The position numbers and the translations under genes were made by a program. A stretch of 64,000 nucleotides of DNA, taken from NCBI GenBank assembly GCA_051362555.1, contig CM120644.1:13476567-13540566 (forward strand), given 5' to 3'. How positions within the stretch are numbered: the first letter of the stretch is position 1; every line of letters starts with the position of its first letter. Positions 11,135-43,200 of this stretch are shown one piece after another. The notes under the pieces are model-generated. The model did no database searches. It was not told the origin of the DNA and saw only the letters and a program-made list of their open reading frames with translations. The DNA is from Lingula anatina (taxonomy: Eukaryota > Animalia > Brachiopoda).

Positions 11135-11203
<69 letters not shown>

Positions 11204-12321
11204 CTGACCTGATCGTGAACTAATGCCCCAATGGAAATGACGCCCAGTTGCATTACGGCCTGTACTGCCCAAGATATCATTGCCAATATGTCCAAGGGTG
11301 TACCGGCCACGTCGTCCAAATGATAAATCAACAAGTAGCATATGAGGCAACAAAGTCCTGTATTTAAAACCAAAGTGTAGGCCACGAAGAAACTGAACAT
11401 CCCGTCGGCAATGTCAAATAATTTACAGAGTTTCAGATGACGGCGTCGGTGAAACTCCACACGGAGAGGCTCACCTGTTACAAGTGCTTGTTGTACTTCC
11501 TCTTTAAACTCATCGTTGAATGCCTTAAACAGGTTGTAGAACAGAATGCAGAAGAATGTATAAATGGCATATGGCACAAAAGCAGCAAGACTCGTGTAAA
11601 AACCGCCAAATGCCACAAATGCATTCAGTATAGTAACATCGGTGCTGGAAACTGTGACATTCACAACGTAGTGAAACGGAGAATAGAGAAATACCGGCGT
11701 TAATTCATTTGACATTAAGTAAACCATGTAAACAAAGTTAAGGACATTATAAAATACCACAAATGCTGCTGCAATTTTTGTCTTTAGATCGAGTTTGATT
11801 GCCTCCATCACGCTAGGAAGATCTCTTTCCAACTGGGTGCATTCCCTCCAGATCGCTGGCAACCGGTCGTTGTAATAACAAGCACAGTAACAGAACGTAG
11901 CTTGAAGAGCGCAAACCAGGTACCAAACCGCAAACATAATTTTATAGTACAGTGCTGGGTTTGCTACACTCTCATTGCCATCAAATGCAACCAGTCCACG
12001 TGCTATGAAATGTACCCACATATAGGACACAGCAATGAAACTATAAACGTGTAAAGCGGACACTTTCTGCTTCCCTGGTTCGTCCCTCTTCGCCGAGACA
12101 TCGTGAATTTTGGCGCCACTCCTTTTCTCGTGGTAAAGTCCAAATATTGTCATAACAACGCGTAACGGCTTAAAACTTTTATACACCTTGGAATCTTCTA
12201 TGGCCAACGCCTGACCATTTTGTCTCTTAGATAAAGCCTCGGGTATACACCTCGTATCATGTTGTCTCCCAACCATGTCGAATCCATCAAGAGTTGGTAT
12301 AGTGACTTGAACGTCGGCCAT
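8222..12321 (-). CDS. Gustatory receptor-like 7TM chemoreceptor, copy 1 (GRL1), 455 aa
   Basis: Exons 12321-11209, 10201-10133 (AHSPLLELNEAQLDIIPDSQLIP), 9113-9024 (FQMFLNKLSVTPIGFSALGMFTIDKPTILT), 8317-8222 (IIGMFLTYFFLMIQFKP...*); three phase-0 GT-AG introns near the 3' end and the TM7 TYhhhhhQF signature are diagnostic of the GR/GRL family. Confidence 0.92.
11113..11202. repeat. Compound (GT)n(GA)n microsatellite just inside GRL1 intron 1
   Basis: Directly visible; equivalent (GA)n tracts at ~18762-18806, ~32830-32872 and ~37590-37619 in the paralogues. Confidence 0.95.
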
Positions 12322-12354
12322 TTTTTCCAAAGTGAATGGCGATTAGAAACACAG

Positions 12355-16408: not shown

Positions 16409-18761
16409 GTTTTTGATGGCTGTTAATTAAAAAAATTGTTTCTCTGGGAGCATACAAGCCGAAGACGTTATTTATTGAATCCAAAAACATTATCTATAAT
16501 TTGAAAAGTGTATATTTAATTTTACTTGCAGGACACTACCTCTTCTATAGTCTATTGCCCCGAAGCGTTGGTTAATGCGGAACCATTTTATTCTTACCGA
16601 AATCAACTGGTTATCGGGTATGATGTCCAACTGAGCCTCGTTGAGCTCCAAGAGTGGGGAATGTGCCTAAAAGAAAAAAGACATTACAACTAGAAAAGCA
16701 CTCAGAGAGCGCATACCTCCGCCAAGGCAGCAAAGTCTCCATCCAATGCCGTTTCAATTTTCAATATTTTTGGCAATTGATAATTGATTGATTATTGACC
16801 CGGATAACCACCAAAAACTAATCATCTCTTCCGTGGCCCGCTTCTGATAGTTCCTGAAAATTTCATAAAAATCAGTCCATAACTTTTTGAGTTATGTTGA
16901 TGACAGACGGACAAACAGACAAACAACCAGGGGTGAAAACTTAACCTCCTTGGCGGATTTAAATATACTTTGTTATAATTAAACATTTACATATATATTT
17001 AACAGCATATGTGACAACCGAAACAACAATTTAATCACTTCAATAATCGGTAATATTTTCTTAACACAACTGTGATGTATTTTTGTTTGAGCAATAACGT
17101 GTTTTATTCCATATCCTCGTATAGTACCAGATCAACAAAACAACTGTCTTTCTCAGTAAACTCTCCTGGTTTCGACCCCCCCCCCAAAAAAAAAAAAAAA
17201 AAAAAAAAAAAGGAGGAGGAGACTGGGCCCATTGTATCCCAAGCAATATAGCCGTGTCTTCCCACATGCACTAGCCCAAATCTGTCGGTTCAGCACAAGT
17301 AGGACATTACATCGTTAGATCGAAAAGCATACATTGAGTATTTTTACTTGAATGCATTTTAAATATTGGATCAGTTGTCAAAACAATTCAATAAAAAGGA
17401 AATTATCCGTCAGACATTGCAGGAAGACATACTGCCAATTCATTGTTTTTTGGTTTCCTATGTAATGGCCCTGTCACACCTTGACGATTTAGCTAGCGAA
17501 CGCCAACGTATGAAAAATTTGGCCAATACGCTGGCGTACGTCGAATGAGTGGTGGGTAAGTTTTGTATAAGTTAAGAACACGCTGAAGCACGCCGGTAGT
17601 CCAAAAATTTTATGCATGCACAAAACTTTTGGACGTATGTCAACGTATGATTCATACGTCCCGCATACGCGAGCAATAAGTTATGCGATCGTTGACACCC
17701 CATTCAAACAAACGTTATGTGTTAATTACTCACAAGTCGTAATACGTCAAGATAATATCAAGCTTACCAAGACGTTTGTTCAACCTTTGATTAACGTGTT
17801 TCGAACCTATGTGTAACTTATATCGAAATTACCTCTAACGCACATTGACATATTTAGACGTATTTGACGCATTCCGAACAACCCCGGAACTAACTAAACG
17901 TGATAACGTTGAGCTACCTTATGATGGCTTGTTGGCAGTGTTTAGGAGAATTGGGGTATAAAAATGGGGTTCGCATAATGGTGATGTTGACACTGCGATG
18001 CCTAGTGAGGTTAAGATTTGAGTCATCAAGTGGCAGCCTTTTCAAAGGCTACGGCACGTGATCGTCGGCCATACGCTGCCGTGTGGTATGCATAAGTTAG
18101 ACTGGCGTTGGGCATAAGTTGTGAACGCCGGCAACACGCTACGCATTCGTTGGTATAAGTTGTCTATAAGAAATAGAAACGTTCTATATAAGTTACTAAT
18201 ACGTCATGCATACGCCGAACTCGTTATGAATACGCTATGTATACGCCAAAATTTGGAAAAAAAACGTCGACATTGCCATCACAATGATCACGTCGGGTAT
18301 ACGCTGGCAAAATCGTCAAGGTGTACGTGACAGGGCCATAAACGAAATTCGGGTCCAGCTACATTACGTGTTGATCAATATACTGAAAATGCTCAGCCGA
18401 GGAAAACGTCGATTGTTTTTTTTTTTTAATCCTCGAGCTACAAAAAATCGAGACATGTCAGACATGTCTAAATTGTCATTAAATATTGTACAATTTACAA
18501 AGCACTGATTTTGATGAATTTAGCCAGATGATCCGTACATATGTAGAAAAAAAAAAAAAAAGCAGACGGCATCTCATCTAGCTGATCTCCGATTGTTGCT
18601 CCAATGGAAATAACTAAAATTACTATAAGAAACTAAAGCTATTTTGTCCCCGAAACCTTTGTTTTTTTTCGACATTCGTGCGGCGTTCAAATAGAGGTTG
18701 AGAGAGAGAGATGTTGAGATGAACTTCTATGCGTGCATATGCATGTAATCATAAGGCAAAC

Positions 18762-18810
<49 letters not shown>

Positions 18811-19928
18811 CTGACCTGATCGTTAACTATTGCCCCAATGGAAACGACGCCCAGTTGCATTACGACCTGCACTGCCCAAGATGCCATTACCAATATGTCA
18901 AGGGGTGTACCGGCCACCTCGTCCAAATGATAAATCAACATGTAACATATGAGGCAACAAAGTCCTGTATTTAAAACCAAAACGTAGGCCAGAAAAAAGC
19001 TGAACATCCCATCGGCAATGTCGAATAATTTACAAAGTTTCAGATGACGGCGACGGTGGAACTCCACACGGAGAGGCTCACCTGAAACAAGTGCTTGTTG
19101 TACTTCCTCTTTAAACTCATCGTTGAATGCCTTAAACAGGGTGTAAAACAGAATACAGAATAATATGTAAATGACATATGGCACAAAAGCAGCCAGACTC
19201 GTGTAAAATGCACTAAATGCCACAACTACATTCAGTATAGTAACCTCGGTGCTGGGGACTGTGACATTCACAACGTAGTGAAACGGAGGATAGAGAAATA
19301 CCGGCGTTAATTCATTTGCCATTAAGTAAACCATATAAACAATGTTAATGGCATTATAAAATACCACAAATGCTGCTGCAATTTTTGTCTTTAGATCGAG
19401 TTTTATTGCCTCCATGACGCTAGGAAGATCTGTTTCCAACCGGGCGCATTCCCTCCAGATCGCTGGTAACCGGTCGTTGTAATGACAAGCACAGTAACAG
19501 AACGTAGCTTGAAGAGCGCAAATCAAGTACCAAACCGCAAGCATAATTTTATAATAAAGTTCTGAGTTTGCTACACTCTCATTGCCATCAAATGCAACCA
19601 GTCCACGTGCTATGAAATGTACCCACATATAGGACACAGCAATGAAACTGTAAACTTGTAAAGCGGACACTTTCTGCTTCCCTGGTTCGCCCCTCTTCGC
19701 CGAGACATCGTGAATTTGGGTGCCACTCTTTCTCTCGTGGTAAAGTCCAAATATTGCCATAACAACACGTAACGGTTTAAAACTTTTATAAACTTTGGAA
19801 TCTTCTATGGCCAAAACCTGGCCAGCTTGTCTCTTAGAAAAAGCCTCAGGTATACGCCTCGTATCATGTTGTCTCCCAACCATGTCAAATCCGTCAAGAG
19901 TTGATATTGCGTCTTGAACGTTGGCCAT
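14482..19928 (-). CDS. Gustatory receptor-like 7TM chemoreceptor, copy 2 (GRL2), 455 aa; recent duplicate of GRL1
   Basis: Exons 19928-18816, 16666-16598, 15370-15281, 14577-14482; same exon lengths (1113/69/90/96) and phases as GRL1; TYFFLMIQF motif; introns and flanks still alignable to GRL1. Confidence 0.92.
16688..16960. mobile_element. Helentron-associated (HINE/DINE-1-like) non-autonomous element in GRL2 intron 1
   Basis: Absent from the paralogous GRL1 site (~10235); subterminal inverted repeats tccgccaagg (~16718) and ccttggcgga (~16948); internal gaca-type microsatellite (gacagacggacaaacagacaaac); no TSD seen. Confidence 0.7.
17466..18338. mobile_element. 873-bp non-autonomous PIF/Harbinger-like DNA transposon in GRL2 intron 1
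   Basis: TIRs tggccctgtcacaccttgacgattt / aaatcgtcaaggtgtacgtgacagggcca (right TIR has a 4-bp insertion); TAA target-site duplication (17463-17465, 18339-18341); the paralogous empty site in GRL1 has a single TAA at 10704-10706. Confidence 0.88.
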
Positions 19929-20033
19929 TATGTCCAAAATGAATGGCAATTAGAAACACAGGCGTGAGCTGCTGTACACTTATATAAGCGTTATATTGAT
20001 TACCTATTATCTTTGACCCATTAGTACATTAAG

Positions 20034-22300: not shown

Positions 22301-22372
22301 TCGCGTGGTACGCACAATAAATGCATATAAATATTTTCCTCGACTGTAGAAAGGGAAAAAAGCCATTCAATT

Positions 22373-24858
22373 ATGCCGCCGTATTTGCCTATGCCAGGTC
22401 AGATATCAAGAAACCCATCTTCAATAGCAGGACTCCGTGTTTTACTAGTTTCCAACTCTGTCAACAGTTTGACCAATAGAGTTAAGATGACCTTACAAAG
22501 ATTGAAGGTAAGTAAAATAGTAATTACAAAAACAACTTATTTGTACTGCTTTAAGGCTCCCTTAAACTCTAAAACCCATACAGAATGTTTTGTGCATTTA
22601 AATAGCATTGATTAATAAGAGTACAATGCTATTTTTGTGTTCTGACAGTTTATGGGGCCTATTAATCTATTTAATAGCAAAGTCGAATCATTGCACGTTC
22701 CCATAGCTCAGGTACATGTACTGCCAAAAAGTCTTGACATTTCATATGGAATAATTTTTCCAAATCATTTTTTTTTTTTGCTTTTTTTTCTGACTGAAAA
22801 ATGAATTCGAGGATTTATTTCATCTTTTAAAAAACTTTTAATTAAATCTTCAGTGCCACTGTGTTGAATGAGTCATTGTCATGAGTTCTTTATTTGAATT
22901 ATCCTCATTAAGCAAAGAAATATAAATGGACTATTCTTACTCATACAACAACCACTAAAAAGGTGTTTTGGATCTCCACATATTCGATATCATAATATGT
23001 AAATAAGTTTTACATCTGTAAACGAGAGGAGGCTTGATCGTATCAGTGTCTTGTCACAGGCTGCTACCAGGGTTCTCAAGCGGCAAGGCATTCCCTGGGA
23101 CAAGTTTTGTAAAAGTGTAACCTAGCTGGAATAGTATTCCTGGCATCGGTCAGAACTTGTTCAATTTTGTTCCGGTTTGTTGCAGGACCAGTAGACCGAT
23201 GGTTTGTCTGAAGTGTTCAAATCTGGTGATCTTGATGGCTGTGGTAGCTCCTCAGTCCTTGGGTTCTGTAAGTAATCTACGCATACAAGCGGTCTGAGCG
23301 GACTGGCATTTTCAAATTGTAAAAAAATTCTTCCTGAGGTGTCCTCTAGCAAGTAGTAGGCAGGTGGTCTCCAGAATATTCCTGTATTTGACGTGGTCAG
23401 ATTTCAAACGATGACTACCATTGCTGTTTTGGCACCATTTTAGGAGTGACGCACACTTCGTTGTAGACCTCTTCAAAGTGTCCCTGAGCTCATATTTGAC
23501 CACTTTGGTGGTACAAATGAAATCTAACCTCAACAGAAAAAGCCATACGGTTCCAATGTTGTGCCAGGAACAGTTAATGGTTCCTTACATATTACATAGG
23601 CGACAAGGTTGTACTTTCCATAGGATTAGTAACCTGCTTAAACCACTGTAGCGTTCGCAAAAGGCCTTGAAAAACACTTTTTTCTGATGGAAATTTGTCC
23701 CTCAGTTTGATGGGAAACGGCTGCCGTTGTTTAGTTGTACAGGTAAAAGCCAAACTGTGGTTTTAAGTTGTGGTCACCCTGGGCGTGACATCTGCGAAGG
23801 TACACCAATCTGGGCATGCCTCTGGAACACTGTGCCGATCGTTCCTTAACCTTATGACACAATTTATCTGTCTGGTAATTGCACCATTCTAGCGTAGCTA
23901 TAACTAGAGCAACGGTTCTGTGAAACATTGCTTCGCTCAATCTACGCAAGCTGCTTGCTTTTATGCAAAATTTCAATCACCAGTGAAGGCGTTTCCAAGA
24001 TATGTATACTTACTGCTAGGACTACCTCAAAGAGTACTGCCCAATGGAATTATCACATATTACGTAATACTGGAGTGCCATAGACAAGGTAGTCAATTTA
24101 TTGGTACTGACACACCTGGCTACCAAATTCTCTATTCACATAACTTAAACCAGAAGGGAATTTTTTTTAAAATAACAATTCGTCTAAACCTGGAAATGCC
24201 TTTTCAAGTGAAATATTCCATACAAAATGTCAACTTAATATTTATTACAGTGCGTTGCCAAAATAGTTACAACCCAGTTATGTATGCTGCTGAAAACTGC
24301 CACATAAAATGAGAATTAGTTCAATCTTATTTTAGAAGGGCAACAAAATAATGTTTTTAGGTTCAGAACAAAAATTTGAAACATTCTCATGAAAACAAAC
24401 CATTATACTTTATTTATTCAGAAAAAAAAGAGAGTTAAGAATATGATTTTTGGATATTTTGATAAATTTCATCATTTTATATTACAAATAGTTAATGCAA
24501 TTTTGACAGTTTATCCTATAGTCTGTTACACTGTAGATTAATTTATATTTACTGAACTGTAGAGGTAGTTAAGTCCAATTGCCGAAAAACGGGGGTACGG
24601 GAAAGGAAACCGTTTATAGTATATGACATAACAGTGCCATGAAAAGACCCACGTTCCACCACCAAAGTAGCCATGCACAGGACACCAGAGGGACATAGAA
24701 AAAAGGTAGACCTTACATCACATGGAGAAGGACTGTTGAAGTAGAGTTGAGACAACTGGGAGAAAGCTGGGGAACCATTCAACACCTAGCTGGCTCGTGA
24801 CAGAGAGCAGTGGAAGTGTTTTGTTGGTGCCTTAGACGCTCGACGGTGTAAAAAGAGA

Positions 24859-24890
<32 letters not shown>

Positions 24891-25701
24891 ATTTAACTGA
24901 AGGATTGTTCAAAACATATAAATAATTAATGCGTGCAACAGTGAAGCATTTCTTAGGAAAATGTTTAAAAGTTCTGACATAAACCAATAAAGTTAAATTT
25001 TCAGTGAATTTTAACCTAGAATACCTGTATAATACTAAAGGGTACTTTTGTTAAAAATCGTCTGCATTTAAATGACTTAATGATTTTTGAAAAAATGGGG
25101 GTAAGGAGTAGACGTTGTTCATACACTGTAGTAGGGAAATTAAGTAAGATTTTAAAACTATGTTTTTTATCTACATATTATGGTTAAATACTATTTTGCG
25201 TGTACAGTAGGCTTCCCATAGCCCCTTTTGCAAAAGTGTTAAATTTAGTTAAGGGGCGCGAATTTTAGACAACTGCTGTTCAGCTGACTAAGGTGCCTTT
25301 TACAATAAATCTAAAAGATCGCTTGTTTAACTGTTTGACCTTAAACCTTTGACAATGATTTATTTGTCCAAGTCATTATTGAGCTCATAGGCAAATTACT
25401 TAAGTCTATTAGGATTTTCTTTTCAGAAACAGTGTCAAGATCCGTGTCACAACCGTTAATTGCTCCTTGGCAACGGACGTGTGTTTATTTGCATTGCTGA
25501 GCTGATATCGCTCTCAAAACGCCACGGTTTCACTGTCATCGTAGTTTACAAAGTCTCGGCAATTACCCTAACAAGTAAAAACACATGCAAGGTAAAACCA
25601 GCTCTACAGGCTCACTTCTACGGTCTGTAGTGTCTTACTTCTAACTACTTGTTAATCATCGGAAGTAAATAAACCAAGTCCTTGTGCACAAGCCAATATT
25701 T

Positions 25702-25740
<39 letters not shown>

Positions 25741-28637
25741 TTTTTAAGGTATGGGCAGATGATGACGTCGGGTTGGTAAATTGTAGAATATAGTATAGTA
25801 TTTATTTATTAACGTGACGTGATATAGTTTTACAAATCACCCTACCCCATGGGCCTACAAGTCACCGAAGTTTCTGCATATATCAGAAACAAAAACAAAA
25901 CAAAAAAATATGATTAAGGTTGAAAGTTATAACTAAGCAAATAGTATAGTTAATGGTAGACTCAACTCTTGAGTATAATAAGAAAAAAATATGAACATTT
26001 TTGTCAAAACGACTTGCTCATAGTGTAGTTGGATAAGTCGTATTTTACACACAGTTCGCTGAAAATACGTGTAGAACGTGCACCTTGTCACTACGTGTGA
26101 ACACATGTATCTTGGCATTTTTTTCGTTTCAAATGTGCGCATAAAATATAGCACAGGTACTGAGCTTACCTGTAGTTATTCCCGGAAATTAGTGTGCATC
26201 GAAAGATTGAAGACAGTGAATTACCCATACAATCGGATCCTATTACGGCCTTCAGTATATTAGGTATATAGAGTACTCATACTTGGAGTAACTGTTTGTT
26301 AATGGCATATCCCTGCGGTGAGCCTCGGTTAATACTGTTTATTAAAACCACATCGAAGGACCGTCACCCTCTCTGTGCGTGTACATTTACGTCACTACAT
26401 TGTACTGATAAAAGTATGCATTTTATTCATTTTTATCATCCAGGTGATTACCCATGTCCTGCCGTTCGTTAGTGGAAGCGCCATGGAAAATGCAGTAACA
26501 CTTTACCAACCCGACGTCATCATCTGCCCATACCTTACAAAATACATCCCAGAAACAATTTGGCAGACGACCAAGCGGCCATGTTTAGTTTTTCATCCGG
26601 GTATTGCAGGTGACCGCGGACCTAATTCCATTGATTGGGCCATACGGCAAGACAAGAAGGAATGGGGTGCGACGCTGCTGCAAGCTAGCCCGGTTATGGA
26701 CGGAGGCGACATCTGGAGTACGGGGACATTCCCATTAAAAGAAAACGCCACGAAAACAGGCGTGTACGGTGGGGAAATCAGTGACTTGGCCGCCGAGCTG
26801 GTCGTTGACGGGCTTACGAGGTATTTCAGTCCAATGTGACTGCCCTTCATTTCAGTGATCAATTAATAAATTAATCAATTAATTTTAAATATTCTTTGCT
26901 GTCTTTGCCATTGGGGTTTTGTAGCTTCTTTTTATTATTTTTCTTTGTATACTGTTATATAATGCGGCGACACGCTGAGTTTTAATCTCGATTTACTCCA
27001 TTCCATCTTATTCCTAATTAAGGTATCGACTTGGAGTGATTCCAACGCCACTTGATTACAATCGACCAGAAATAAAAGGCTGTCCGTTACCCCCAATGAA
27101 AAAGTCCGACAGGGAGATTGACTTGTCTGCCTCAGCTGATGATATATGCCGAATCATTCGAAGTTCCGACACACATCCAGGCGCCCTTGCAAATATCACA
27201 TTCCGCGACAACAATACAGAACTAACCGAAACTTATAGGGTATACGGTGCCCACATAGAGCAAGACCGTAGTGGAGCTTTGGAACAAAGGTTGAATGCCC
27301 ACAAACCTGGTTCTGTAATTGGAAAGAAGCAGGGGGCACTTTTGGTAAAAAGCGGAGACAAGCTGGGAGTTTGGATAACTTGTTTGAAGGTGAGAGTGTT
27401 TTATTTTCCAAGCGGTGAAGTGTACAGGTCTGCAGTAATGACACATTCATATTTTACTTGCTAATCCACGATACTGAATAGCAGAAAATTAAAAAAATAA
27501 ACCCACCTGTTACCACCAGGTGTCACTCCTGAAAGTCTGTTGATCACGGCGGCGCTTTACAGTAGTTTCTACAATAAGAATGCTTTCGTGGATCTCAGAT
27601 TGATGTTCACTCTGTCTCTTATGGAGAGAGACACTTTTTTGCTTTAAAAATTGGAGGGGGTCGTTTGATTGGAGTTTCTCTTATATCAAACTGGTAACTA
27701 GTAGTTTTTGAATAGATTTCTAATTTGCTTTAAAGGACAAAAAGAAGTTGTCCCTCAAGCTTCCAGCAGTGTCTGCAATTTCACCAACTCTGGCCTTGGG
27801 AATTGCGGATTTGAGCAATTTGTCTTCATATAATCAAGTCTGGGTGAGTCAATCCGGACAAGCGTGCTACATTCACTTTGATTTTTACAATGGTGCTATG
27901 GACAGCAACCAGGCAGATCATTTGACAGAGGTTCTTCGTCAAGTTGCCAAGATGAGCCACATCCGAGTTGTTGTGTTGATGGGCGGAGAGCGTTTCTTTT
28001 CGACAGGTGAAATCTTGATTTACACAGATGTTCAGACAATTCTGGCTGAGATTTGTTCACAGTACTGACTGTGTTTTATATTTATTTATTCGGTTCTTTC
28101 ATATATAATTAATACTGTGGCAATTTGTTTTAGAATAGGCAATCAAATCACTATGTAACACATAAAAATAGATGTTTTAATTTATTTTTGAAAGCAACGG
28201 TAATTTATCATTAAGTCTACAAAAGATATAAATAACCCTTTGCAATAGCGATTGGGTCATTAAAAATGTTTTGGTCACGCTCTGTCACAATTATAAAATT
28301 ATAAACAAATGAAGTGAACTGATCAGAAATGTACTTAAACTGACATGAAAGAAAAATGAGAAATGAAGATAATAATATTGTATTTTCGTAAAATCAGGAA
28401 TCAATCTCTGCCGAATAGAAGCTAGCAGTGACCCAGTATTGGAAGCTTGGAAGAATATAAACAAAATCGATGACGTCATACTGGAAATGAGCAAGATGAC
28501 CGATAAGTTGGTGGTTGCTGCTCTTCAGGGGAACGCTGGGGCCGGGGGAGCGATGCTTGCGGCAGCGACCGACGTTGTCGTGGCACATCCGGTATGTATT
28601 ATGTCATTGCCTTAAGATGTGGTTTTAGATTTGAGCG

Positions 28638-28684
<47 letters not shown>

Positions 28685-30061
28685 TTTCCATTTATCTGTT
28701 AATGAGTTTTATGTTTTTTTTTCATTGTTAGCTTGTTTATATATTTTCATTTATTCATTTATATATTTTTTAGTTTTTGTTTGCTTCATTATATCTTATC
28801 ATTATATTTGTTAATCTTGGTACTAGAATCAAGTATTTCGCTTTCATTTTAATCAAAAAGTTTGTATTAAAACGATCTTTCCAATGTTGAACTGACCCTA
28901 ATACAGTATATGAGAACGATTACGCCATAATCACAGTACGGGGAATGCATCGCAGATGTGCCCATACAGTATCTTGATGGCGTAAGTGATAACGCCTGGC
29001 TGGCATATACTGTATCTCACACCTTTCTGCAAAATGACCTTGTTTATATTATTATTATCTTTTTTATATTCAGGGTGTATTTCTGGGCCCTTCTTATCAG
29101 AACATGAACTTGTATGGCTCGGAATACTGGACGTACTTCTTCCCGAAGAGGGTTGGTAAAGAAAAGACAGATGAAATAATGTATTCTAACCCTGGGCCTA
29201 TCCTTGCTGAGCATGCGCAAGAGTTGGGCATTGTGGACCACGTGATTGGAAAGTTAGTCAAATTACACGTGATTGGTAACAACAACGCGCATGTGCATTC
29301 AATGTGTAGACCCGTTCAGCGGCCCTCTCTTTTCTGCCACGGTACTCTCTTTTTTTCCCCATAAATATAGTTTGTATAAAGAACTAAAAGGGACAAAATC
29401 AAATATTTTCCAGTCTGTTTCTATTTATTTACCAGGCGTGGCAAAACATTTTACTCTTATTCTCACCCGTCCCTTGAACAAAATTCTGAATCCATCAGTT
29501 CATATGCGTACCGACGCTACCATAGTTGGCTTTCCTTTCTAAATGTCTCTTATCACAAATGGAATCCAATTAAGTATGATATTACGCAATGTTGTAACAG
29601 TATTACATGCACAATGTGTTCCGTGATACGAGGAAACGTTTAAAAAAGTAAATTGGACTTTTCGTGAATCATTTTGTTAAATGCTAGTGTGCTTGTATAT
29701 AAACGTGTACAGTAGGCCTACTTACCGGTAAATGAAGCACATGCACTGTATACAGGTATTATGTGCGTGGCTCCATGTATTAATCGACGAAAATTGCATT
29801 CTACTTTCATTTTGCAGAAACAAGATGGACTTTTATAAAAAGCTCCCGATCTTCATCAACGATTTAGCCACGGACAAAGCTACGGGAGAAATCATCACGG
29901 TCAAAAAACGCACACGTAACGAAGAGTGGTTCCGAGTTCTTTCTTTCCACCGACACAGAGAGCTTCAGCTGATGTGGGAGTGTTTTAATTCGTCTTTCTT
30001 CCACAGGGAGAGAAAAAAGTTTGTATACAAACTTACTGACAAGGAATACGACGAATTATAG
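22373..30061 (+). CDS. hypX: HypX/HoxX-like protein (N10-formyl-THF formyltransferase domain plus enoyl-CoA hydratase/crotonase domain), 7 exons, 588 aa
   Basis: Exons 22373-22507, 26444-26820, 27023-27389, 27736-28006, 28398-28591, 29074-29252, 29818-30061 join through GT-AG sites in compatible phases (0,2,0,1,0,2) to give 1767 nt without internal stop. Motifs: LRVLLVSNSVNSLTNR, QPDVIICPYL, FHPGIAGDRGPNSIDWAI, WGATLLQA..MDGGDIW, KLPA, FDFYNGAM, FSTGINL, AALQGNAGAGGAML, PSYQNMNLYGSEYWTYFFPKRVG, FHRERKKFVYK. TATAAA at 22326-22331. Confidence 0.92.
23040..23900 (-). mobile_element. Degenerate Tc1/mariner transposase relic in hypX intron 1 (boundaries approximate)
   Basis: Broken minus-strand frames give FENASPLRPLVCVDYLQ...LPQPSRSPDLN (cf. 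Tc1 QDNAxPH...WPxxSPDLNPIE) and VKYRNILE (cf. YxxILE). Confidence 0.65.
24646..24890 (+). mobile_element. 5'-truncated RTE-clade LINE 3' end with (TAG)n tail, in hypX intron 1
   Basis: Translates to TTKVAMHRTPEGHRKKGRPYITWRRTVEVELRQLGESWGTIQHLA, then after a frameshift RDREQWKCFVGAL, typical of the RTE ORF C-terminus, followed directly by a (tag)n microsatellite. Confidence 0.8.
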
Positions 30062-30681: not shown

Positions 30682-33600
30682 TCACGAGACCGTAACATTC
30701 CCGGCAAAGGGCATTGTGGCATCTGATGGTTTAAACTGGATCATCAGAAAGAAATACGTCAGGAACATGCCGATTATCTGAAATAAATAGCTGTTTATTT
30801 AGATGTTATTTTTTCATGTAAATTATTGCTTCATCTCGCCCTTGTATTGTGAAAAACATCAATAACATTGGCTAAAGGGCATTGACAGTGACGTTAACAC
30901 CGCACATCTTTTACGATGGGAGGAGTGATGGCAAAGTCTCGGGGTGGGCTATTCTAGAACGTGAAGCTTATGTATATAATTACATTAGGGTGTTTTTCTA
31001 GAGTCGGTTAAATATCTTCTTGTTACCAAAGCAAAACACAACCAGACTATAAACTAAATGGTAAAAATGCATAAAAATAAAATTCTGACTTTCTCAAAAT
31101 AAAGGGCGTTGTGGTCGTTAACCAAATTTATCATTTTTACCAACTTTATGTTTACCTTTACAACAGTTATGAATATTGTATTTATAACAAAACTGTATAA
31201 ACATGTACACCGTTGTCTAAGGCTACAACTTAATGTTTTGTTAACTTTAACAAAGATATGTATTTTATTATACGTATTTTTCGCATATAAAGGACCGGAA
31301 GCCTAAAATAATACGGAATATACCACCTCAAATTTGTACTGACCGTCAAAATAGTAGGTTTGTCTATGGTAAACATCCCCAATGCACTAAATCCTATAGG
31401 ATTGACACTTAGCTTGTTCAGGAACATCTGAAACTATATCATTTGCTATCGTAAAATGGTGTAGTGTTAAACCTGTATTATTTTGTAAAATGAATCTTAA
31501 TAATAGTACAGAAATTGTCAATTAGGAATTGTAGTTTATGAGAGTAAATTTTTCACCTCCTAAACTAACATGACAGATAGGTATACCTAAACAAAGCTTT
31601 CGGTCACTCCAGGTCCTTTCTTTGTGTATGTGTGTTACTATGATCGAGAGGGACCCATTCACTAATGTCTCAGTAATAGTGCTGTCCTATATGTGCGGCA
31701 ATTTGTGTCTCTGCGTATCGGTGCAGGCTCGGGTTGTGGGCAAGGATGTGCCTGTAACCTTAACCCTTCTCTCCGAGACTGGGGAGAGAGAGAGAGAGAG
31801 TGAGAGAGAGAGAGAGAGAAACATTAATTGTCGCACTTTACTGAGACATCTGTGAATCGGCTCATTCGCACAGTAACACAAACAGAGGAAGGAATGCTTT
31901 GGCATAGCTATAGTTTCAGTGTCGAAAGAGTTTAATCTTATAAGTTATCAACAGACTTAACAGATTAATTTCTATCAGAGTGTGAATTACAGCTAGGCTT
32001 TTTAATCTGTTCTCACTACCGTGATCGTGTCTACGGACACGGTTACTCTTCACCGTGACCAAGCCTACCGCCTACTTTTTGAACAATGGAAGTACATGTA
32101 TAGCACTAGGAATCAGTTGCATTTTTGCACTAATGTAGTTAATCACTTTTAACTGTTATTAACGAATCTTGATTTTCATAATTAACTTTCCCAATTATAT
32201 TTATAATTGTTCCGTTCTCTTAATCCAAATCCCAATTTATTCATATTGTTTTTTTGTGAAAATTCGAGCTTTCGTCACAAACTGGCCTTTCCAAAGAACT
32301 GAGACAAGTGCCAGAGCTAGACCAAAACGTTATATCTCAATTAGCTTTCAGCTAACGTTAAAAGCATTGTTAACGTCAATTGATCTAAGTAACCAATTTG
32401 CTATGGACTTTCCTGTATTACTAATGGACGTTTTTTTTTCTTGATGCATTAATCAATTAGACAAAGTAGCATGTTGCAAATACTGTTTTATCAGCACACG
32501 AAGAAAATCAATAGGCATCGTCTGTTGATGGTTTTACCCTTTGTTGGATGTTTGTTACAAGTATCTCATTTTAGAAGAAGGAGGACGACAATGAAATGTA
32601 ATTAGCGGTTTTCACAGCTATGACGCCAACCGTACTCTATAATTAATGCATCCATGACAAATTTCCCATATTTGTTGAACATTTGTTTTATTCTTACCGG
32701 AATCAACTGGTTATCGGGTATGGTGTCCAACTGAGCCTCGTTGAGCTCCAAGAGTGGGGAATGTGCCTAAAATTTATCACAAACACATTTTGTTATGATA
32801 AAACGTTTGCTCTACAAATTATATGTAGTGAGAGAGAGAGAGAGGGAGAGACAGAGAGGGAGAGAGAAAGAGACGTACTAACCTGATCATTAACTATTGC
32901 ACCAACTAAAACGATGCCCAGCATTACGATGCCCTGTACTGTCCAAGTTATCATGGACATAATGTCCAGGGGTGTACCAGCCACCTCGTCCAAATGATAA
33001 ATCAACATATAGCATATGAGGCAACAAAATATTGTGTTAAAAACCAAAGTGTAGGCCACGAAGAAACTGAACATTCCATCGGCAATGTCGACCAATTTAC
33101 AGAGTCTCAGGTGACGGCGTCGGTGGAACTCCACTTGGAAGGGCTCACCGGTAACAAGGGTTTGGTGAACGGCCTCTTTGAATTCATTGTTGAATGCCTT
33201 AAGCATGGAGTAAAACAGACAGCAGAAGAATGTATAAATTGCGTATGTCACAAAAACAGCCAGGCTCGTGTAAAATGCACTAAATGCCACAAATACATTC
33301 AGCAGTGTTACCTCGATGCTGGGAACTGTCAAATCCACGAAGTAATGAAAGGGAGAATAAAGAAATGCAGGCATTAAGGCGTTTGACATCAAGTAAACCA
33401 CAGATATAAAGTTAAAGCCATTATAAATAACCACAATTGCCACTGCAATTTTAGTTCGCAGATCGAGCTTTATTGCGTCCATAACGCTAGGCAGATCTGT
33501 TTCCAACTGGGCGCATTCCCTCCAGATCGCTGGCAATTTATACTGACACGCATAGTAACAGAACGTAGCTTGGAAAGCGCAACGCATGTACCAAAAGGTG

Positions 33601-33989
33601 TACATAATTTTATAGTACAGTACTGGGTTTGCTACACTATCATTGCCATCGAACGCAACCAGTCCACGTCCTATGAAATTTACCCACATGTAGGACACGG
33701 CAATAATACTGTAAACTTGCAAAAATGACACATTCCTCTTTCTACGTCCCTTTCCTAGCGCCGATATGTCGTGGATTTTGGCGCCACTTTTTTTCTCGTG
33801 GTAAAGTCCGAATAGTTTCATAACAACGCGTAACGGTTTAAAACTTCTAAAAACCTTGGATTTTTCTACAGACAACACTTCGCCATTTTGCCTACTCGGA
33901 ACAGTCTCAGAAACACCTCCTTTAGCGTTTTGTTTCCCAACTATTTCAAATCCATCAAGGTTTGCAATTGTGACTTTAACGTCAGCCAT
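30682..33989 (-). CDS. Gustatory receptor-like 7TM chemoreceptor, copy 3 (GRL3), 453 aa
   Basis: Exons 33989-32883, 32766-32698, 31433-31344, 30777-30682 (IIGMFLTYFFLMIQFKPSDATMPFAGNVTVS*); phase-0 introns; intron 1 is only 116 bp. Confidence 0.92.
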
Positions 33990-36900
33990 TTTTCAAACTG
34001 TGTGTCAATTTGAATACACAGTTAGGCGTGAGCTTCTGTACTTATATGAGCGTTATATCGATTGATTATTGTTGACCCATTAGTACGCACTTTTTACTGG
34101 GGAAAATCGGTACGTTTGTTTTTTTATTTACAAATTCTTCGATCCCCAAGTACAATTCAATTATCACGTTCATATATGCGGTATCTTTCAGATTAAACAC
34201 ACATACTTATTTTTCATAGTTCTCATTATAAACTTTGTAAGCCGTGCATTTTAAAACATTATTTAATAAAGATAGTCGGTGAAGTACAGCTGTATTGATC
34301 GCACGTAATTTCCAAGCACTTAATTTTCATTTGTAAAAAAAAAATGAATTTGAGAATGGCAGAGAAATAAAATGGGTTAAAACAACTGTTCATTTTGCCC
34401 AAAAATGGAATTTCCTGGGGTAAGCGACTATTTTCCGATATTTAAAATGCGTATTAATGAATATGTTCCGGCAACCACAGATAGTCCATGTATTTTTTAA
34501 CTCTGGTTTTTTGTAATAATTCCTTAAATGATTATTACAGAGGGTGGCCATATGCCTGTATGATGCTCCACGTGGCCAGATGGCAAGCAAAGATTGCAGA
34601 ATGATCGCAATAACTGCCGTATTGGTGGTACAAGAGAATTACATTCCTTCGAGCTGTTTACAATGTATTTATTGAAAAATATGAATCTCATACGAACTAT
34701 TTTTATCCTTTTAAATGCATGAATGTGCTGAATTTGTGTAACTTAATAAGAAATGTCACCGTAGCATTAGTATAGATGCACATTTAAATTAAACCATATT
34801 TAGTTGTATATTTGAATAATTACCTTGGGGCCATTTATGCACGAGATTTTCAGTAATCGTCATGGTATATCACTTCTTCTTACCACACAGGGCGCCAAAA
34901 ACCGTACAATACGGCAATTATCCATGCACAAAGCACCAATTAGTTATTAAACAGTTCTAAGACATTTATCATTCGATTTTTGTCTAATGGCACAGGCGAC
35001 GAAACCGAATTCAAAAAGTTTCCGTTTTCTTCGGTGGATATGGTCAAATATCCTACCACTAATAGGTATCGATTGTGCATACGTGTCCACTTATTACCTT
35101 TTGATGTCAGACTTTTACTTTAAGCTTCTGGGTGTGGAGACGAAGAGGGGCCCTCCATTCACGGCGAAGTTCCGTTCCTGCAGAATTGCCAACTAAACGC
35201 CTTGTTTAATGGAGCCTTTGATTACATCATTGATTACATTTAGCCCACCACGTTTTCTGGGCGTGATTTACTTTGACCTCAAATTTCTAGTATGGGTGGT
35301 GGTCTAAAAGTAAAAAAAAACTATAATTATATTAATGATTTGCGGCCAAAAACTGTTACATTACAAATAGAATTCTAGAATAAAAATAAATTAATGCAAT
35401 ATTAAAACTACAACAAATTAAATTGGCGTCTATGCGTTTAAACAGATTAAATTGATATTATACGTTCATCAAGGATATGAAAAAGGGGCACAGAGTTATA
35501 ATGTACTTCAGCTTATGCACAGCTGATGTTTTTTTTTTAATATTGACATTTTATGGCAATATTTCAAATCAGTTAATCACTGTGAAATGCTTTCTTAGAA
35601 GTCAATTACGCAGGGGTTTAACAAGAAAAAGCGCTTATATGATCCTTTATTTCTAAATAACATGCAAATATAATATTGATTGGTTAAAAATCAAAATCAC
35701 AGATTTTTATTCAAAAGCAATCCATTTGGTTTTATCGCATAAAAATAACTATTGTAACTAAATTCGAAAGATATATCATAACCAGTGTTCACCTTATATC
35801 TTAACAATAACCTTCTCCATATATTTAAAAAAAATTCTCTATTGGTTCACAATACATAGTTGTACAGTACATATTTACATTGGTAGAAAATTGTAATATG
35901 CATCAAAATCATTAAAACCCTTTCAAGTATTGCTTGCACGTATACGATGTACATAAAATTAGTTTGATGTAAATTTATTTTCATTATATGCGATTAAATA
36001 GTTTAAATATTTCTAAATATGTTTAATTACTACGAAGTGCCAAGGTTTTTAAAAAATATTTTTGAATATAATAATTGTTAAACAATAATTTCCAATCACA
36101 TGCACCATAAATAAAATGCAAATTAATCAGGAAAACCAATCGAACGTAATTTTTACTTCACGTCGACCACATGTGACGTTATAAATAAAGGTCGCGTAAA
36201 TCGCGTATTGACTTGGCCGGATTGACGTCGATTATACATGAAATTTAGGTTGATCAGAGCCATGACCTAATTTCGCCGTCGTTTCTAAGACTCCGTGCCA
36301 GTTGTGCTCAGTCATATTGTAGGTCGCTATCTAAACTCACTTGGTCATGTGTGCCTAAGCAAAACGTATTACAAATATTTGTGTTATAATTTAGCCTCAT
36401 ATATTTCAGATATCCGATTCCTTCTAATGGTTGAAAAAATGCCACTATAAATAAAAATATAATACCAAACAGGGTTATCACATATATAAGAAAGAGACAG
36501 AATATAGTTTATCTTTTGTCTCTCGGCATGGTTCATTAAACGCAACCTTAATATTCCTCTACATAAGATAGATCGCAGAGCAAATCATAAGTAAAACTAA
36601 TACTAAATTTGTGTGGTGGCCTTATAAACCACAGCAAGCAAAATATTTGATTCAGCACCCTGAATAAAGAGAAGCAAGCCTTGATGATATGATAAAAAAT
36701 AATGAAATAAAAAACAATATGGTTAAAATAACATGATAAAAATATGTGGTTAACAGCTAATGTGTTAAATTTGTGATTATTTCTTATAACTATTACACGG
36801 TTTATGTTACAAACTGCACATTTTCTGTCTCTCTGTCTCAGATTTAGAAATAACATTAACTGTAATCGGTTTATAATTTTCAAGATAACAAAAAATATTT

Positions 36901-37584
36901 TATTAAAACACAAAACGGTTTTATATATACAGCGTTTTACCACATTAAAACAATTATTTAATCCGTTGCAATTTTTGTGAGTGCGTCATAGATTGAAACC
37001 TTTTTGAAAAACGTCAACTATAAGAGCAATGAAACAAAGGCTTGTCAACATACATTTTTTGCATTTGCTTTTTCTTTTTCATAAGGTTGACAAAACTGAC
37101 GACCATGTACTTGAAACGGTTTGCCCAAACAGTCTAGTTACGTAATGCACTTTCTAGCTTTAACATCCTTCCGGTAGTCCATGCACCGGAAAAGCATGTT
37201 AAGCGAGTAAATATTTGAACAGGAGTTGCCAAAATGCTAGTTCGATAAAAAGGATATCATTTGTTAGGCTTTTAACGATAAAGAGCCTTTTACATTTTGA
37301 AAAGGGAAGCCATGTTAACTTAACGCGATGAATGAAGTTGATTTCCAATGCAAACAGCATACTTTGCAAACTGATGGATTTGCAGAAAACACACAGCCAA
37401 AGAAAAACGTCGATTGAGTTTTAAAATATTTCCTCTTACCAGAAAAAAAAAGCGATTCCGATTAAGACACGCATGTTGAAATGACGACCAAAAGTACAAA
37501 AAAATGTAATGTCAAAGAGATCGAGTGACACAAATTAATTGTGTGATACAGTTTCGCTCATTCGAAGAACAGTCAAATAGATTG

Positions 37585-37621
<37 letters not shown>

Positions 37622-37624
37622 AAC

Positions 37625-38734
37625 CTGCTCGTTAACTACTGCTCCAGCGGAAATAATGCCCAGTTGCACGACGGACTGAACTGCCCAAGTCATCGTGGCC
37701 ATTATGTCAATTGGGGAATCGGTCGCCGTGTCAAAATGATAAATCAACAGGTAACATACGAGGCAACAAAGGCCTGTATTCAAAACTAAAACGTAGGCCA
37801 CAAAGAAGCTGAACATTCCACCAGCAATGTCGAACAATTTACAAAGTTTCAGATGACGGCGTCGGTGGAACTCCACGCGGAGGGGCTCGCCTGTGTCAAG
37901 GGCTTGTTTAACTTCCTTTTTAAACTCATCGTTGAATGCCTTAAACATGGTATAAAACAGAATGCAAAAGAATGTGTAAATAGCATATGGGAGTAAAGCA
38001 GCAAGAGTCACGTAAAAACCACTCATTGCGGAATATACTATCAGTACTGTCACCTCGACGCTGGGGATTTTGAAATCCACGTAGTAATGAAAGGGAGAAT
38101 AAAAAAAGACTGGTATTAAGCCACTTGACATTACGTACACGCCGTATGCAATGTAAAAAACGGCATAAACTATGACAAGTACGACCGCAATTTTGGTTCT
38201 TAGTTCGAGCTTTATTGCCTCCATGACGCTAGGCAGATCAGATTCTAACCGTGCGCATTCCCTCCAAAAAGACGGCAATCTATAGCGACACGCACAGAAG
38301 CAGAATGTAGCTTGAAGAACTGCAGTCATGTCCCAAACCGCAAACATGATTTTATAGTACAGTGCTGGGTTTGCTACACTCTCGTTGCCATCAAATGCCA
38401 CCAATCCATGTACTATGAAATGTACCCAAATATAAAACACGGCAAAAAAACTGTAAACTTCCAGAAATGACACATTCCTCTTCCTTTGCTCCTTCCCCTT
38501 CATCGTGGTGTCGTGAATTTTGTAAGCGGCACCCTTTCTGTCGTGGTAAAGCCCGAATATTGCCATGACAACTCTTATTGGTTTAAAGCTTCTGTAAACC
38601 TTCGAATCTTCTATGGCCACTGCTTCGCCATTTTGTCTCTTTGATAAAGTCTCAGATACGCCCTTGGTATCATGTTGTTTTCCAACCAATTCAAATCTAT
38701 CAAGGTCTATCACTGTGACTCGACCCTCAGCCAT
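37625..38734 (-). CDS. GRL4: intact long first exon (370 codons, about TM1-TM6) with no exons 2-4 of its own; alternative first exon or truncated pseudogene
   Basis: Open frame MAEGRVTV...GAVVNEQ ending at a phase-0 GTTAGT donor, with TATA box. Only a relic of the exon-2 acceptor (TAG|GCACACATGACCAAGTGA = AHMTK*, starting 36354) is seen; no exon-3 or exon-4 homologue found in 34000-37600. Confidence 0.8.
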
Positions 38735-40228
38735 TGTTAAAGGTAAATGGTCACTAAAGTACTCGGACGTGAGCTGCTGTACCTTTATATAAGCTTCATA
38801 TTGATTTTTTATCACTGATCCATGGCCATTTGCAATTGAAGACAGGAAGTCTATGTTGAGAGATTTCATGAGTACACACTCTTCCAAGCACAGATCCCTG
38901 TACTTGCATATCAAACAACCAAACATGATATACCTAAAATTCACGGTACTTTTGAAATTCATTATCAAAAAAGCGCTGATAAACAAAAATAGTTTGCATA
39001 TATTTGATTTTATATACATTTAATAGCTGTTCAATATTTGATTTTATTTATTTCAACTTCCTTCTAATAGTTTTGAACCAATAACTGCGATTAGTATGTT
39101 TCCGTTTTCTGTGGTAGATAGGCTAAAATGTCCTACTACTAACATCTATCGATTGTGCATGTATGTTGACTTGTTAACTTTTGATGACAGGCTTTTACTT
39201 GGTTTGTTTGCAGATTTTTGGTACAGAATTAAGGAAAACAATCGCCATGCAAGGAGAATTCGTTCCATGCAAGGAGGATCCGTTCCTATCAAACTGCCCA
39301 TTTACACGCCTTGTTTTTGAAATTGGTCAATGAATGTTTCCGCCCCATCCAGCTGGTTCTGGCGGCACTTACGTAGATCTGAAATCTCCGATCTGAGTAT
39401 AGTCAAAATAATAATAATAATAATAATAATTTATATATGTTACTTATACAGTAGGATTGGGCAATAAAACAATTAATTCAATTGGTACCTAATTAGTAAT
39501 TTCATCATAAAATCAAAACAAAGCAGTGACATTTAGCTTCCGCGCATTTTCTCAAAAACAAGAAAAATAATAATAATAATGCAACCGCTGATCGTTATTT
39601 ATTATAAAATGACAGTTAAACATATTCAAAAGCATTCCATTTAATTTTCTTATGAATATCAATATTACAACTAAACACGGACAATCTCCAGATAAATTCT
39701 ACTCCGTGCTATCTAAATACATGTAGAAATCTACCATTATATTGATTTACAATATAGTTTTACAGTACATTATGACCTGTTCCCCTCACAAAACTGCTGG
39801 CACTTCAGACACACTATACACGTGTAAAAATGGACTAATTGTTTCTATATCCAAATATTAATACATATACACGAGTAAAACACGATTTAGTATATCCAGT
39901 TTCTTGTGCCCACTAGCGAATCTAGTGCTTAACATTCACACCCATGACCTCTGATCATGGGTCATAGCTTTACACCCGTTACCAAGTCGTACATTTCCTA
40001 CCTACAAAATGGCCGAGCTGGTAAATGTTCCGCCTTGATGGCAGTTATAGTATTATAGTTTACACTTTTGGTCACACGTTAATATACTTTTTTGAGGGTG
40101 AAAGATAAGAAGGTGATACCACCAAAGGTAAGAAAGTAACACGCCCACCCCCACCCCCACCCCTTTCTCTCCCCCCTCCCCTCCACCCCAGTTCCGTCCT
40201 TGCTATTACAGTGGACTTTGTGGCCGTT

Positions 40229-43200
40229 CTATCCAGTGCTGGTCGCGTTCACTGCAGTTGCGTCCTCTGTTGACGGTTTGAACTGAACCATCAGGAAAAA
40301 ATACGTCAGGAACATGCCAACAATCTGAAATTACACGAATGCTTTAGTTGGAACGGAATAATATTAAATAAATATGACTTATCGGGGAAATGCAAAAATA
40401 GCGATAAAATGGTATGGTTTCTCCTATTTCTTATTCTCTTAAAAGAAATGTGACATCAGTAATTAGGACAAATAACACTGCATTTACATCCCAATTATTT
40501 GAAATACACTTTACGTTAACAAGCGCAATCTCAACTACTGCAATCGACTGACAATTTCTATTCTGTTGATATTCTTAAAGACTTCTGTCCTAACTTATTA
40601 TTACGAATTAAAATACCCAATTTTCCAAAGATGTCTAAGATATAGAGGACCCCCTCCCTTTTGATATGCAAGTGCCCTCATCATTGGTCTAAAAGTTTGT
40701 CCCACCTCCAATTCCATGTACTAATTGTTTGACGAGAGCCCCCTCCCCCCCCCCCTCCCCATCTGTTAACGGCAGGGACGATATACAGTATTTTTATTGT
40801 TATCATTATAGTTTTTTACATTTCAAGCAGTTTGTTGTTCGTACATGCACCAGCTGGATGTTTAGATTGCCGGCATACGGGGCATTTTAAAACCAATTAT
40901 TATACTGTATATTATGTACATGAACATATCGTTAGAAGCATTCGCAGCACATAAATTCCAATACTTTTAGAAATGTAATGTTATGCTATGTGAGCTAACT
41001 TACCGTCAGAATGGTGGGCTTGTCAATAGTGAACAAACCCATGGCGCTGAAGCCGATCGAAGTTGCGCTTAGTTTATTGAGAAACATCTGAAACTGAATG
41101 GAGATTGAGCGTTAATTACCCCATGGCGGATTACGGAAATTGTTCAGAGGTGGGGAGGGGTCACAAGGATTAACAATAAATATTGAAATAAAACATAGTA
41201 GACGATGATAGATTTTTTTATAATGTAGAAAGCAAGGATGAAAATGTCATTGGTTTTGTGTTATTTCGTTTGTTAAATTGAAATTTTGGAAGGGGGAAGT
41301 GAAAGAGGTGGTACATTTGTACTTCCAAATACTGCAAGGGGGGCGTGACAGATTAACCCACTGCCCCTTCAACAAGCCCCCATTGTTACTTATTAGTGAA
41401 ATGGATCAATTATTAATGCCAGGTGAAATGGCTTGTTAAGGAGGAGAATTTTAATGGGAGGAGGGTTATGGCTGTGTAGTTTGCATAATAAAATTTGTGC
41501 GTATGTGTTTTAATGGCAAATACAACAAATTAAAGCATTGTTACTAGAGTGAAATTGATAATCAACCGTTGATTAAATAAGGAACTAATCCAATTAGCCC
41601 CAACGATTTCCTTTTCACTGTATCCTCAGTTCAGCAAGATAAGAAACAATTTTGCTTGCTATGCCCTACATATTTTTGTACATTAAGTATTTTTAATCTT
41701 ACTTCATTCATGATCGGAAAATAACATATCCTGGACTGTTTGTAAATTTATAATTTCGGCTCATAAAACAGTATATTCCAGAATATATAAAAACGCCATG
41801 TGTTGCAAAAAAGAAATACTTCAAGGTCCGATAAATAACATAACAATTATTGTAAGAGCAATGCTATATGACAAATAACATAACAATTATTGTAAGTGCA
41901 ATGCTATATGACAATCCTGCGCGGATGCAAGGAAGATAATAACTTTTTAAAGAACAAAAATTGCAGATGTGCAAATTAGATCTTTTAAACACACACACAC
42001 ACACAAACACGCATACACACACGCACACACACACGTGTGTGTTTGTGCGTGCGTGCGTGTGTGTATTGGTCCAAGGGAACTGTATCGAACATGATACCTG
42101 ACTACTTACCGGTATTTGCAGGTCCTGTTGCGAAGTGTGAAATTCTATGTCGTGAAGTTCCGAAAGTGGCGCATGTGCCTAAGATAAAGATAAGAAGAAA
42201 ATAAAATCATGTTTTTAGCACGTATCAAAAATTACCTTTGTCTTAAACCCGTCGGACTTGATATAGGATTTTCACTGTAAAGTACCAAATATAAGAGATA
42301 CAAAGACACAAATTTTATGAGTTTGCTCACTGGAAACCTCAAGTTAAAGTAAAACAAGACGCAAGTACACTTTCAGCCAATTAGAAACAGCAAGTTCTTT
42401 TCAGGTATCCACTCTCTCACCTGTGAATTTGTGATTAAAAAGAACATTAAAATTTTTCCATTATCTACCTGCTCGTTGACAACAGCGCCATACGCTATCA
42501 GCCCCAGCTGCGTGAACGCTTGCATGCTCCAAATCACCATGGCAACGATGGTGGGCACATCCTCCATCACTGCGGCAAAATGGTATATGAAGATATACAG
42601 CGTGATGCAAGCGGTGGCTGTACTGCTTACAAGAGCGTAGGCAATAAAAAAGGAGTACAAGTCATCCCCAATTTCCATGATTCGACAAAGTTTTTGATGT
42701 CTTCTCCGGAATGTTTCAAGGTCCAGAGGAGTTCTGCTCTCGACCGATTTCTGCACCGCGTTCTTGAAGTGGTCATTGTACGCCCTAAAGGCGTTCTGGA
42801 ACACGCCGCATACGCATATGTAAAAAGAGAACGGGAAGTAAGCGGCTGCTGATATTACGACCGTTGATATACAAGTGTAAACTGTCACGAATATGTTGCT
42901 CGCGTTCATCACTGACATGTCCATGAAACGATGGAACGGGGCGTGTATGAAAGGCACCCGTTGGTTCTGGTACGCAACTGTGATCCACAAAATATAGGTC
43001 AGGTTCATGACTATGGAGGACAGGGCCAGGCCGGTGAAGGTGACCACGAGGCAACGCACTTTCACTTCGCCTGCTATCCACGGCATATCTTGTTCCAGTC
43101 GAGCACATTCCTTCCAGAAAGCCGGTAATTTGTCTTGGCGGTGGCAAACGTGGAAGCAGAGCGTCCCTAGAATCGCGGCCAACAGGAAGAAAATGCTATA

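Follow-up and report, generated by a model that had tools for sequence, protein, structure and literature searches.

A spliced HypX/HoxX-family gene in the brachiopod Lingula anatina and a candidate heme-free route to carbon monoxide in animals

Introduction

Bacterial HypX is described as transferring a formyl group to coenzyme A (CoA) and decarbonylating the product with release of carbon monoxide (CO) in vitro (review, PMC12134894), and it has been reported to be functional when moved to E. coli (PMC9100943). The closest described systems are the HypX proteins of Cupriavidus necator and of Aquifex aeolicus (structures 6J0P and 6J1E-6J1J), which act as 10-formyl-tetrahydrofolate (10-formyl-THF) decarbonylases. 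For the Aquifex enzyme, Muraki et al. (PMC6802093) name His74, Asp80, Asp109, Tyr416 and Glu426 as catalytic, propose no job other than decarbonylation for Tyr416 and Glu426, and describe CoA as a tightly held cofactor whose four diphosphate contacts are dispensable for binding. Another account (PMC2974642) covers bacteria only. Here we describe a gene of this family in an animal. It lies on the plus strand at positions 22373-30061 of a 64,000-nucleotide stretch of the Lingula anatina genome (assembly GCA_051362555.1, contig CM120644.1, positions 13,476,567 to 13,540,566), referred to below as the window, whose numbering we use throughout.

The enzyme to which CO production in animals is ascribed is heme oxygenase. 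It would share that endogenous role with an animal HypX, but the two are unrelated in sequence and fold and differ in their substrates, which are heme and O2 for heme oxygenase and a folate-bound formyl carbon and CoA for HypX. A formyltransferase domain homologous to that of HypX is found in FMT and in the hydrolase domain of the 10-formyl-THF dehydrogenases ALDH1L1/2, where the formyl group passes to a pantetheine thiol (PMC6802093). In the literature that we searched, no title or abstract dealt with a eukaryotic HypX and no function for one in eukaryotes was described, as a first-pass annotation of this sequence had supposed for animals; the homolog list of Burstel 2016 could already mention eukaryotic ones.

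Results

The window gene is of animal type, spliced and intact, and belongs to the HypX/HoxX family. Seven exons and six introns, all six with GT-AG borders and pyrimidine-rich acceptors and with phases 0,2,0,1,0,2 in order, give a 1767-nt frame that encodes 588 amino acids and has a single terminal stop. The spliced protein aligns without a gap, and across all six junctions, to the L. anatina RefSeq model LOC106164295 (P0001), with which it shares 513/588 residues (87%). Because the match is gapless, an independent annotation has predicted the same junctions, and the six junctions rest on the splice signals together with this match. Exon 2 by itself retrieves P0001 at 93%. Identity to another L. 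anatina model (P0045), which is incomplete, is 332/393 residues, and the window itself holds one copy of the gene.

In a search of solved structures, for which P0001 was the query, the best match was Aquifex HypX (6J0P, expectation value (E) 2.5e-99), the next families following at about 1e-9. An AlphaFold model of P0001, built from a 127-row alignment, had a predicted local distance difference test (pLDDT) score of 95.1, and its top Foldseek match was again 6J0P (template modelling scores 0.84/0.90). Judged by this 87% identical ortholog, the window protein shares the fold and two-domain build of the Aquifex and Cupriavidus enzymes, the N and C subdomains of the formyltransferase preceding a crotonase-like domain in one chain. 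Pfam finds Formyl_trans_N (exon 2) and Formyl_trans_C (exon 3) above cut-off and weak pieces of ECH_1 across exons 4-6; NCBIfam, which has no HypX model, gave sub-threshold crotonase and fmt matches alone. Similarity to ALDH1L1/2 and FMT is limited to E values of about 1e-8, the ALDH product is CO2, and the carrier and aldehyde dehydrogenase domains of ALDH1L1/2 are absent from the window protein in the Pfam, structure and NCBIfam comparisons. The two-domain frame with six canonical introns and the family assignment, both proposed in the first-pass annotation, are borne out by these results. The window gene differs from Aquifex hypX in being eukaryotic, in its six introns and in encoding a protein only about 33% identical.

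All five catalytic residues of Aquifex HypX are present in the window protein: His74, Asp80 and Asp109 correspond to His96, Asp102 and Asp131, and Tyr416 and Glu426 to Tyr456 and Glu465. The motifs HPGxxGD, MD-GDIW, PxY and YGSEYW, which had been recognised by eye, lie where they were claimed to be. Over 163 aligned rows the His is conserved in 162, the two Asp in 162 and 160, the Tyr in 158 and the Glu in 162, and none of the 44 eukaryote-type rows of our tree set has lost the equivalents of Tyr416 and Glu426. Asn306 and Ala392 are likewise shared with the Aquifex and Cupriavidus enzymes. One clade of Bacteroidota HypX proteins (L008, L023, L030, L035, L060; P0097, P0098, P0126, P0149) has Thr at the position of the 'catalytic' Tyr416. 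The clade is hyp-linked in its five loci, and therefore Tyr416 may not be strictly required.

Where the window protein and P0001 differ, the changes avoid conserved positions: 2/90 columns with at least 90% conservation are changed, versus 33/154 columns below 30% (Fisher p 8e-6), a depletion that shows purifying selection at the level of sequence comparison. From the unique changes in a trio of sequences (35/15/21) no faster rate on the window's branch can be concluded, as the trio is unrooted.

The family is widespread among eukaryotes. Named animal homologs come from bivalves, a nemertean, an annelid, amphioxus, Hydra, Nematostella, corals, Trichoplax, a tardigrade, a fungus gnat and bdelloid rotifers, and homologs outside animals from Chara, a moss, a liverwort and two basidiomycete fungi. 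As anticipated, many invertebrate entries were already named automatically, the label 'hydrogenase maturation factor HoxX-like' being attached to proteins of Mercenaria, Mya, Tubulanus, Branchiostoma, Hydra, Nematostella, Oculina, Montipora, Trichoplax, Hypsibius and Bradysia. These entries belong to the same clade or family as the window protein and share its catalytic set. No vertebrate, Drosophila or nematode name occurs among the best matches listed, a listing that does not test whether the gene is absent from these groups.

In a tree of 90 hand-picked rows (IQ-TREE, LG+G4) the window protein groups with Lingula (100/100) and then with bivalves (100/99). The main animal clade (100/99), with 17 named animal rows and 6 that are unnamed, contains none of the 46 bacterial rows, all of which fall on one side of a branch with support 76/99. 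Since this clade spans Placozoa, Cnidaria, Lophotrochozoa and amphioxus, and has wider relatives, the evidence points to inheritance from an animal ancestor that was early, if not from one older still, and dates the gene to no later than the placozoan-cnidarian-bilaterian split. Rows from rotifers, the tardigrade and the fly are placed with plants and protists and not in the main animal clade, for which long-branch effects or separate transfers are possible reasons; the homologs of the fungus gnat and the tardigrade (P0075, P0165) are among those that group with plant and protist sequences. Because of these rows and the 76/99 branch, the eukaryote homologs cannot be taken to form a single clade.

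FolD domains make formyl-THF. A FolD domain is fused to HypX in 13/32 long homologs that we scanned, at either end and in both bacteria and eukaryotes. The fusions (P0100, P0133, P0187, P0224, P0357, P0427; L004) show both domain orders and occur in Chloroflexota (Ktedonobacter), in bdelloid rotifers and in eukaryote-type proteins, and in one further locus (L031) folD lies directly upstream of hypX. The family is tied to formyl-THF supply, at the level of gene architecture, because of these fusions. Other domains have also joined HypX, with a C-terminal hemerythrin domain in P0172 and an N-terminal receiver domain in P0229. By a crude rule for mitochondrial-type presequences (a basic, acid-free N-terminus), 18/32 named animal homologs have presequence-like N-termini, versus 275/7181 internal windows (3.8%).

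The exons can be placed as follows. Exon 1 (22373-22507) encodes residues 1-45, a 20-residue N-terminal extension and then the first strand and helix of the formyltransferase domain. Exon 2 (26444-26820) encodes Formyl_trans_N with the codons for His96 (26594-26596), Asp102 (26612-26614) and Asp131 (26699-26701). Exon 3 (27023-27389) covers a linker and Formyl_trans_C and includes Leu205 (27123-27125), and exon 4 (27736-28006) the domain linker and the start of the crotonase-like domain with Asn345, the equivalent of Aquifex Asn306, which contacts the CoA 3'-phosphate. The crotonase core with its GNAGAGG motif and Ala432 (Aquifex Ala392) is in exon 5 (28398-28591). Exon 6 (29074-29252) carries Tyr456 (29095-29097) and Glu465 (29122-29124), equivalent to the proposed decarbonylation bases, and exon 7 (29818-30061) the C-terminal helices and the stop, which falls 21 codons short of that of P0001; the DNA beyond it still resembles the longer P0001 tail. 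Coding G+C is 47%, versus 31-43% across the 2-kb bins of the window.

The TATA box noted in the first-pass annotation is present as a TATA-like hexamer (TATAAA, 22326-22331, plus strand), a candidate promoter element 47 nt 5' of the ATG. Near it lies a good in-frame splice acceptor whose AG ends at 22349, and an exon upstream of 22373 is therefore possible. An upstream stretch at 20818-20860/20885 was considered as a presequence exon; its composition fits, but only at chance level, as 39/104 other stretches of the window and 109/300 simulated ones do as well. Intron 1 (22508-26443, plus strand, 3936 nt, GT-AG, phase 0) had been thought to hold host-type transposon relics, for which Pfam offers nothing: none of its 34 stop-free stretches matches a transposon family. 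By eye, 24790-24890 resembles the 3' end of a long interspersed nuclear element with a (TAG)n tail, and 22990-24090 (minus strand) has the look of a degenerate retroelement, in both cases without Pfam support. Within the same intron, 25740-25784 (45 bp) is a 96% reverse complement of an exon 2 stretch (26498-26542); it sits right after an (AT)n/T run.

The HypX gene lies, on the opposite strand, inside an array of at least six related membrane-protein genes. Six long minus-strand open reading frames (10681-12342, 18687-19949, 32793-33992, 37535-39019, 42373-43614 and 49629-50783) form one tandem family of multi-pass membrane proteins around it; in a Pfam scan of five of them one matches 7tm_7 (gustatory-receptor-like chemoreceptor) above cut-off, and the sixth has no convincing family match. 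An immunoglobulin-domain exon lies further upstream (5540-5875, minus strand). These neighbours agree with integration into an animal genome, as had been proposed, and a search of the 64-kb window for hyp and hydrogenase genes gave no match to any of six seeds.

Discussion

The window gene appears to represent a eukaryotic, hydrogenase-free form of an enzyme family already known, a form that is widespread, automatically annotated and apparently unstudied. It is an ordinary member of that family and not exceptional, as the database entries that already carry the family name make plain, and the peculiarity to this animal that had been attributed to it does not hold given the breadth of the clade and the relatives in fungi and plants.

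From the conserved residues and fold, the animal enzyme probably performs the same two steps as bacterial HypX. The formyl group of 10-formyl-THF would be passed to bound CoA, and the resulting formyl-CoA would then be split to free CO with no hydrogenase as receiver; in the window there are no hyp or hydrogenase genes, and no CO acceptor is known, in contrast to the Aquifex system. Many animals are likely, on this sequence evidence, to possess a second, heme-free route to CO. We tentatively propose that the enzyme serves as a gas signal of one-carbon load, which is the weakest step of the argument. A folate pool rich in formyl-THF would cause release of CO near heme or copper targets, which for the presequence-bearing homologs could be mitochondrial ones such as cytochrome c oxidase, and the reaction would free THF at the same time. 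The symbiont provisioning suggested earlier found no support in this analysis.

Bacteria offer a possible precedent. Among 80 bacterial hypX loci, 43 are flanked by hyp or hydrogenase genes and 37 are not. A gene with an MHYT domain lies within 1 kb of hypX in 10/37 of the non-hyp loci (L002, L017, L024, L029, L055, L065, L071, L075, L077, L079) versus 0/43 of the hyp loci, a count inflated by kinship (6/10 are from actinomycetes) and by the drawing of five seeds from the same loci. These pairs occur in Bacillota, Gammaproteobacteria and Actinomycetota, at five separate places in the tree, and the MHYT protein is either stand-alone or fused to PAS-GGDEF-EAL or to a histidine kinase. The same type of domain in CoxC of Afipia carboxidovorans senses CO via copper (PMC11347149), although CoxC senses outside CO for the cox genes, and no link to HypX appears in the abstract of that paper. 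By analogy, the bacterial pairs are possibly CO maker and sensor. Where a probable producer of CO has a probable detector of it as neighbour, and hydrogenase plays no part, a signalling use finds its best precedent. Of 50 hypX-bearing bacterial genomes searched, 7 lack a HypD match (3 isolates and 4 possibly incomplete metagenome-assembled genomes), and a NiFe large subunit is absent from all five of the HypD-less genomes that were retested.

The kinship and incompleteness that qualify these counts weigh against a CO-signalling enzyme, as do several further observations. The other 27/37 non-hyp loci have no MHYT neighbour, and in the 64-kb window none of five MHYT seeds and no folD gene found a match. 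The window protein (in the model starting at ATG-22373) and P0001 have no mitochondrial-type presequence, unlike many of the 'HoxX-like' proteins. Among the Aquifex CoA contacts Arg9, Gln15, Arg131, Arg542, Ser194, Gln195 and Asn306, the window protein matches Asn306 alone, the others being changed to Ser (Arg9), Asn (Gln15), Gly (Arg131), Lys (Arg542), Thr (Ser194) and His (Gln195), and Arg131 is lost across the whole main animal clade; the diphosphate contacts vary among bacterial homologs as well. The C-terminal tail that closes the domain interface has 9 residues versus 20 in Aquifex, and none in many animal homologs. The 20-residue tail is not known to be essential, but a more open cavity, as the sequences suggest, could let formyl-CoA hydrolyse or escape. 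In this copy, finally, Leu205 stands where 124/126 homologs (98%) have Trp, the window's one departure at a column of at least 90% conservation, and position 480 has Thr where Ala is 89% conserved.

Hydrolysis to formate is the main rival to CO release. In this alternative, which we regard as unlikely, the enzyme is an overflow valve for formyl-THF: formyl-CoA yields formate, with a net reaction like that of PurU, THF is recycled and CO is at most a side product. The loss of Arg131 and of the tail in the main animal clade would fit it, free CO poisons respiration, and FolD fusions and mitochondrial-type presequences suit folate housekeeping as well as signalling. A hydrolase would have no need of the crotonase domain, and the universal retention among our eukaryote-type rows of Tyr416 and Glu426 argues for decarbonylation. 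It is still less probable that the chemistry runs the other way, so that formyl-CoA, of which alpha-oxidation is an example source, is captured into the folate pool, or that some other acceptor is formylated. Such a role would fit an N-terminal domain that belongs to the formyltransferases in general, and the difference of some CoA anchors from those of Aquifex; the decarbonylation residues are kept, no peroxisomal-type C-terminus was evident by eye among the animal homologs examined, and the CoA of HypX is tightly held (PMC6802093), all of which speaks against it.

Two other explanations concern the gene rather than the reaction. The family could be functional and the window copy a slowly decaying duplicate, since L. 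anatina has two copies, probably on one scaffold, and this one has the changes at 205 and 480, an earlier stop and a longer terminal branch (0.071 versus 0.041 for P0001). This is improbable, as the frame is open over its whole length, splice sites (12/12) and all five catalytic codons are intact, changes are strongly depleted at conserved columns and many homologs stop even earlier. Recent horizontal transfer from a bacterium, or contamination by non-animal DNA, might be suspected of a family best known from bacteria, whose bacterial homologs are 33-41% identical. A recent event is already refuted, and contamination made very improbable, by the sequence evidence, namely the six spliceosomal introns, the animal-type neighbour genes, and nearest relatives in a brachiopod, bivalves, a nemertean, an annelid, cnidarians, a placozoan and amphioxus within a clade free of bacterial rows. 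The horizontal acquisition first proposed accordingly fails as a traceable transfer into this animal, and no bacterial donor was identified in the 90-row tree; the part of that proposal that may still hold is an acquisition from bacteria in the distant past, before eukaryotes arose or early in their history.

The preferred reading, that of CO release from formyl-THF, bears on an old question in siphonophores. Papers by Wittenberg from 1960 and 1962 reportedly describe a folate-rich gas gland in Physalia with L-serine as the source of its CO, and a labelling result for serine C3 is reported for this CO. Production of CO by the Physalia gas gland is also given elsewhere (10.1101/645465), and a 2026 genome paper (PMC13579702) names L-serine as its source, calls the mechanism unclear and proposes heme oxygenase from single-cell expression and phylogeny. 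The main text of that paper has no occurrence of HypX, HoxX or formyl, nor do the other siphonophore papers examined contain HoxX. Hydrozoan HypX homologs exist (Hydra); the best 120 matches of a cnidarian profile search include Hydra, Nematostella, corals, an anemone and unnamed proteins, with no named siphonophore. We put HypX forward as the enzyme that may supply siphonophore floats with their serine-derived CO, a hypothesis that can be tested. The broadest version of our proposal is doubtful as a whole: HypX would be an ancient second CO synthase of eukaryotes, folate-fed, mostly mitochondrial and lost in model animals, which provides a gas signal as in the bacterial hypX-MHYT pairs and, in place of heme oxygenase, turns serine carbon into float CO.

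If the reading is true, a second animal route to CO would extend across placozoans, cnidarians, molluscs, brachiopods, annelids and amphioxus, the output of CO would be tied to one-carbon metabolism, and HypX would be working outside hydrogenase assembly. The HypX family makes both heme-independent CO production in animals and the old Physalia question directly testable.

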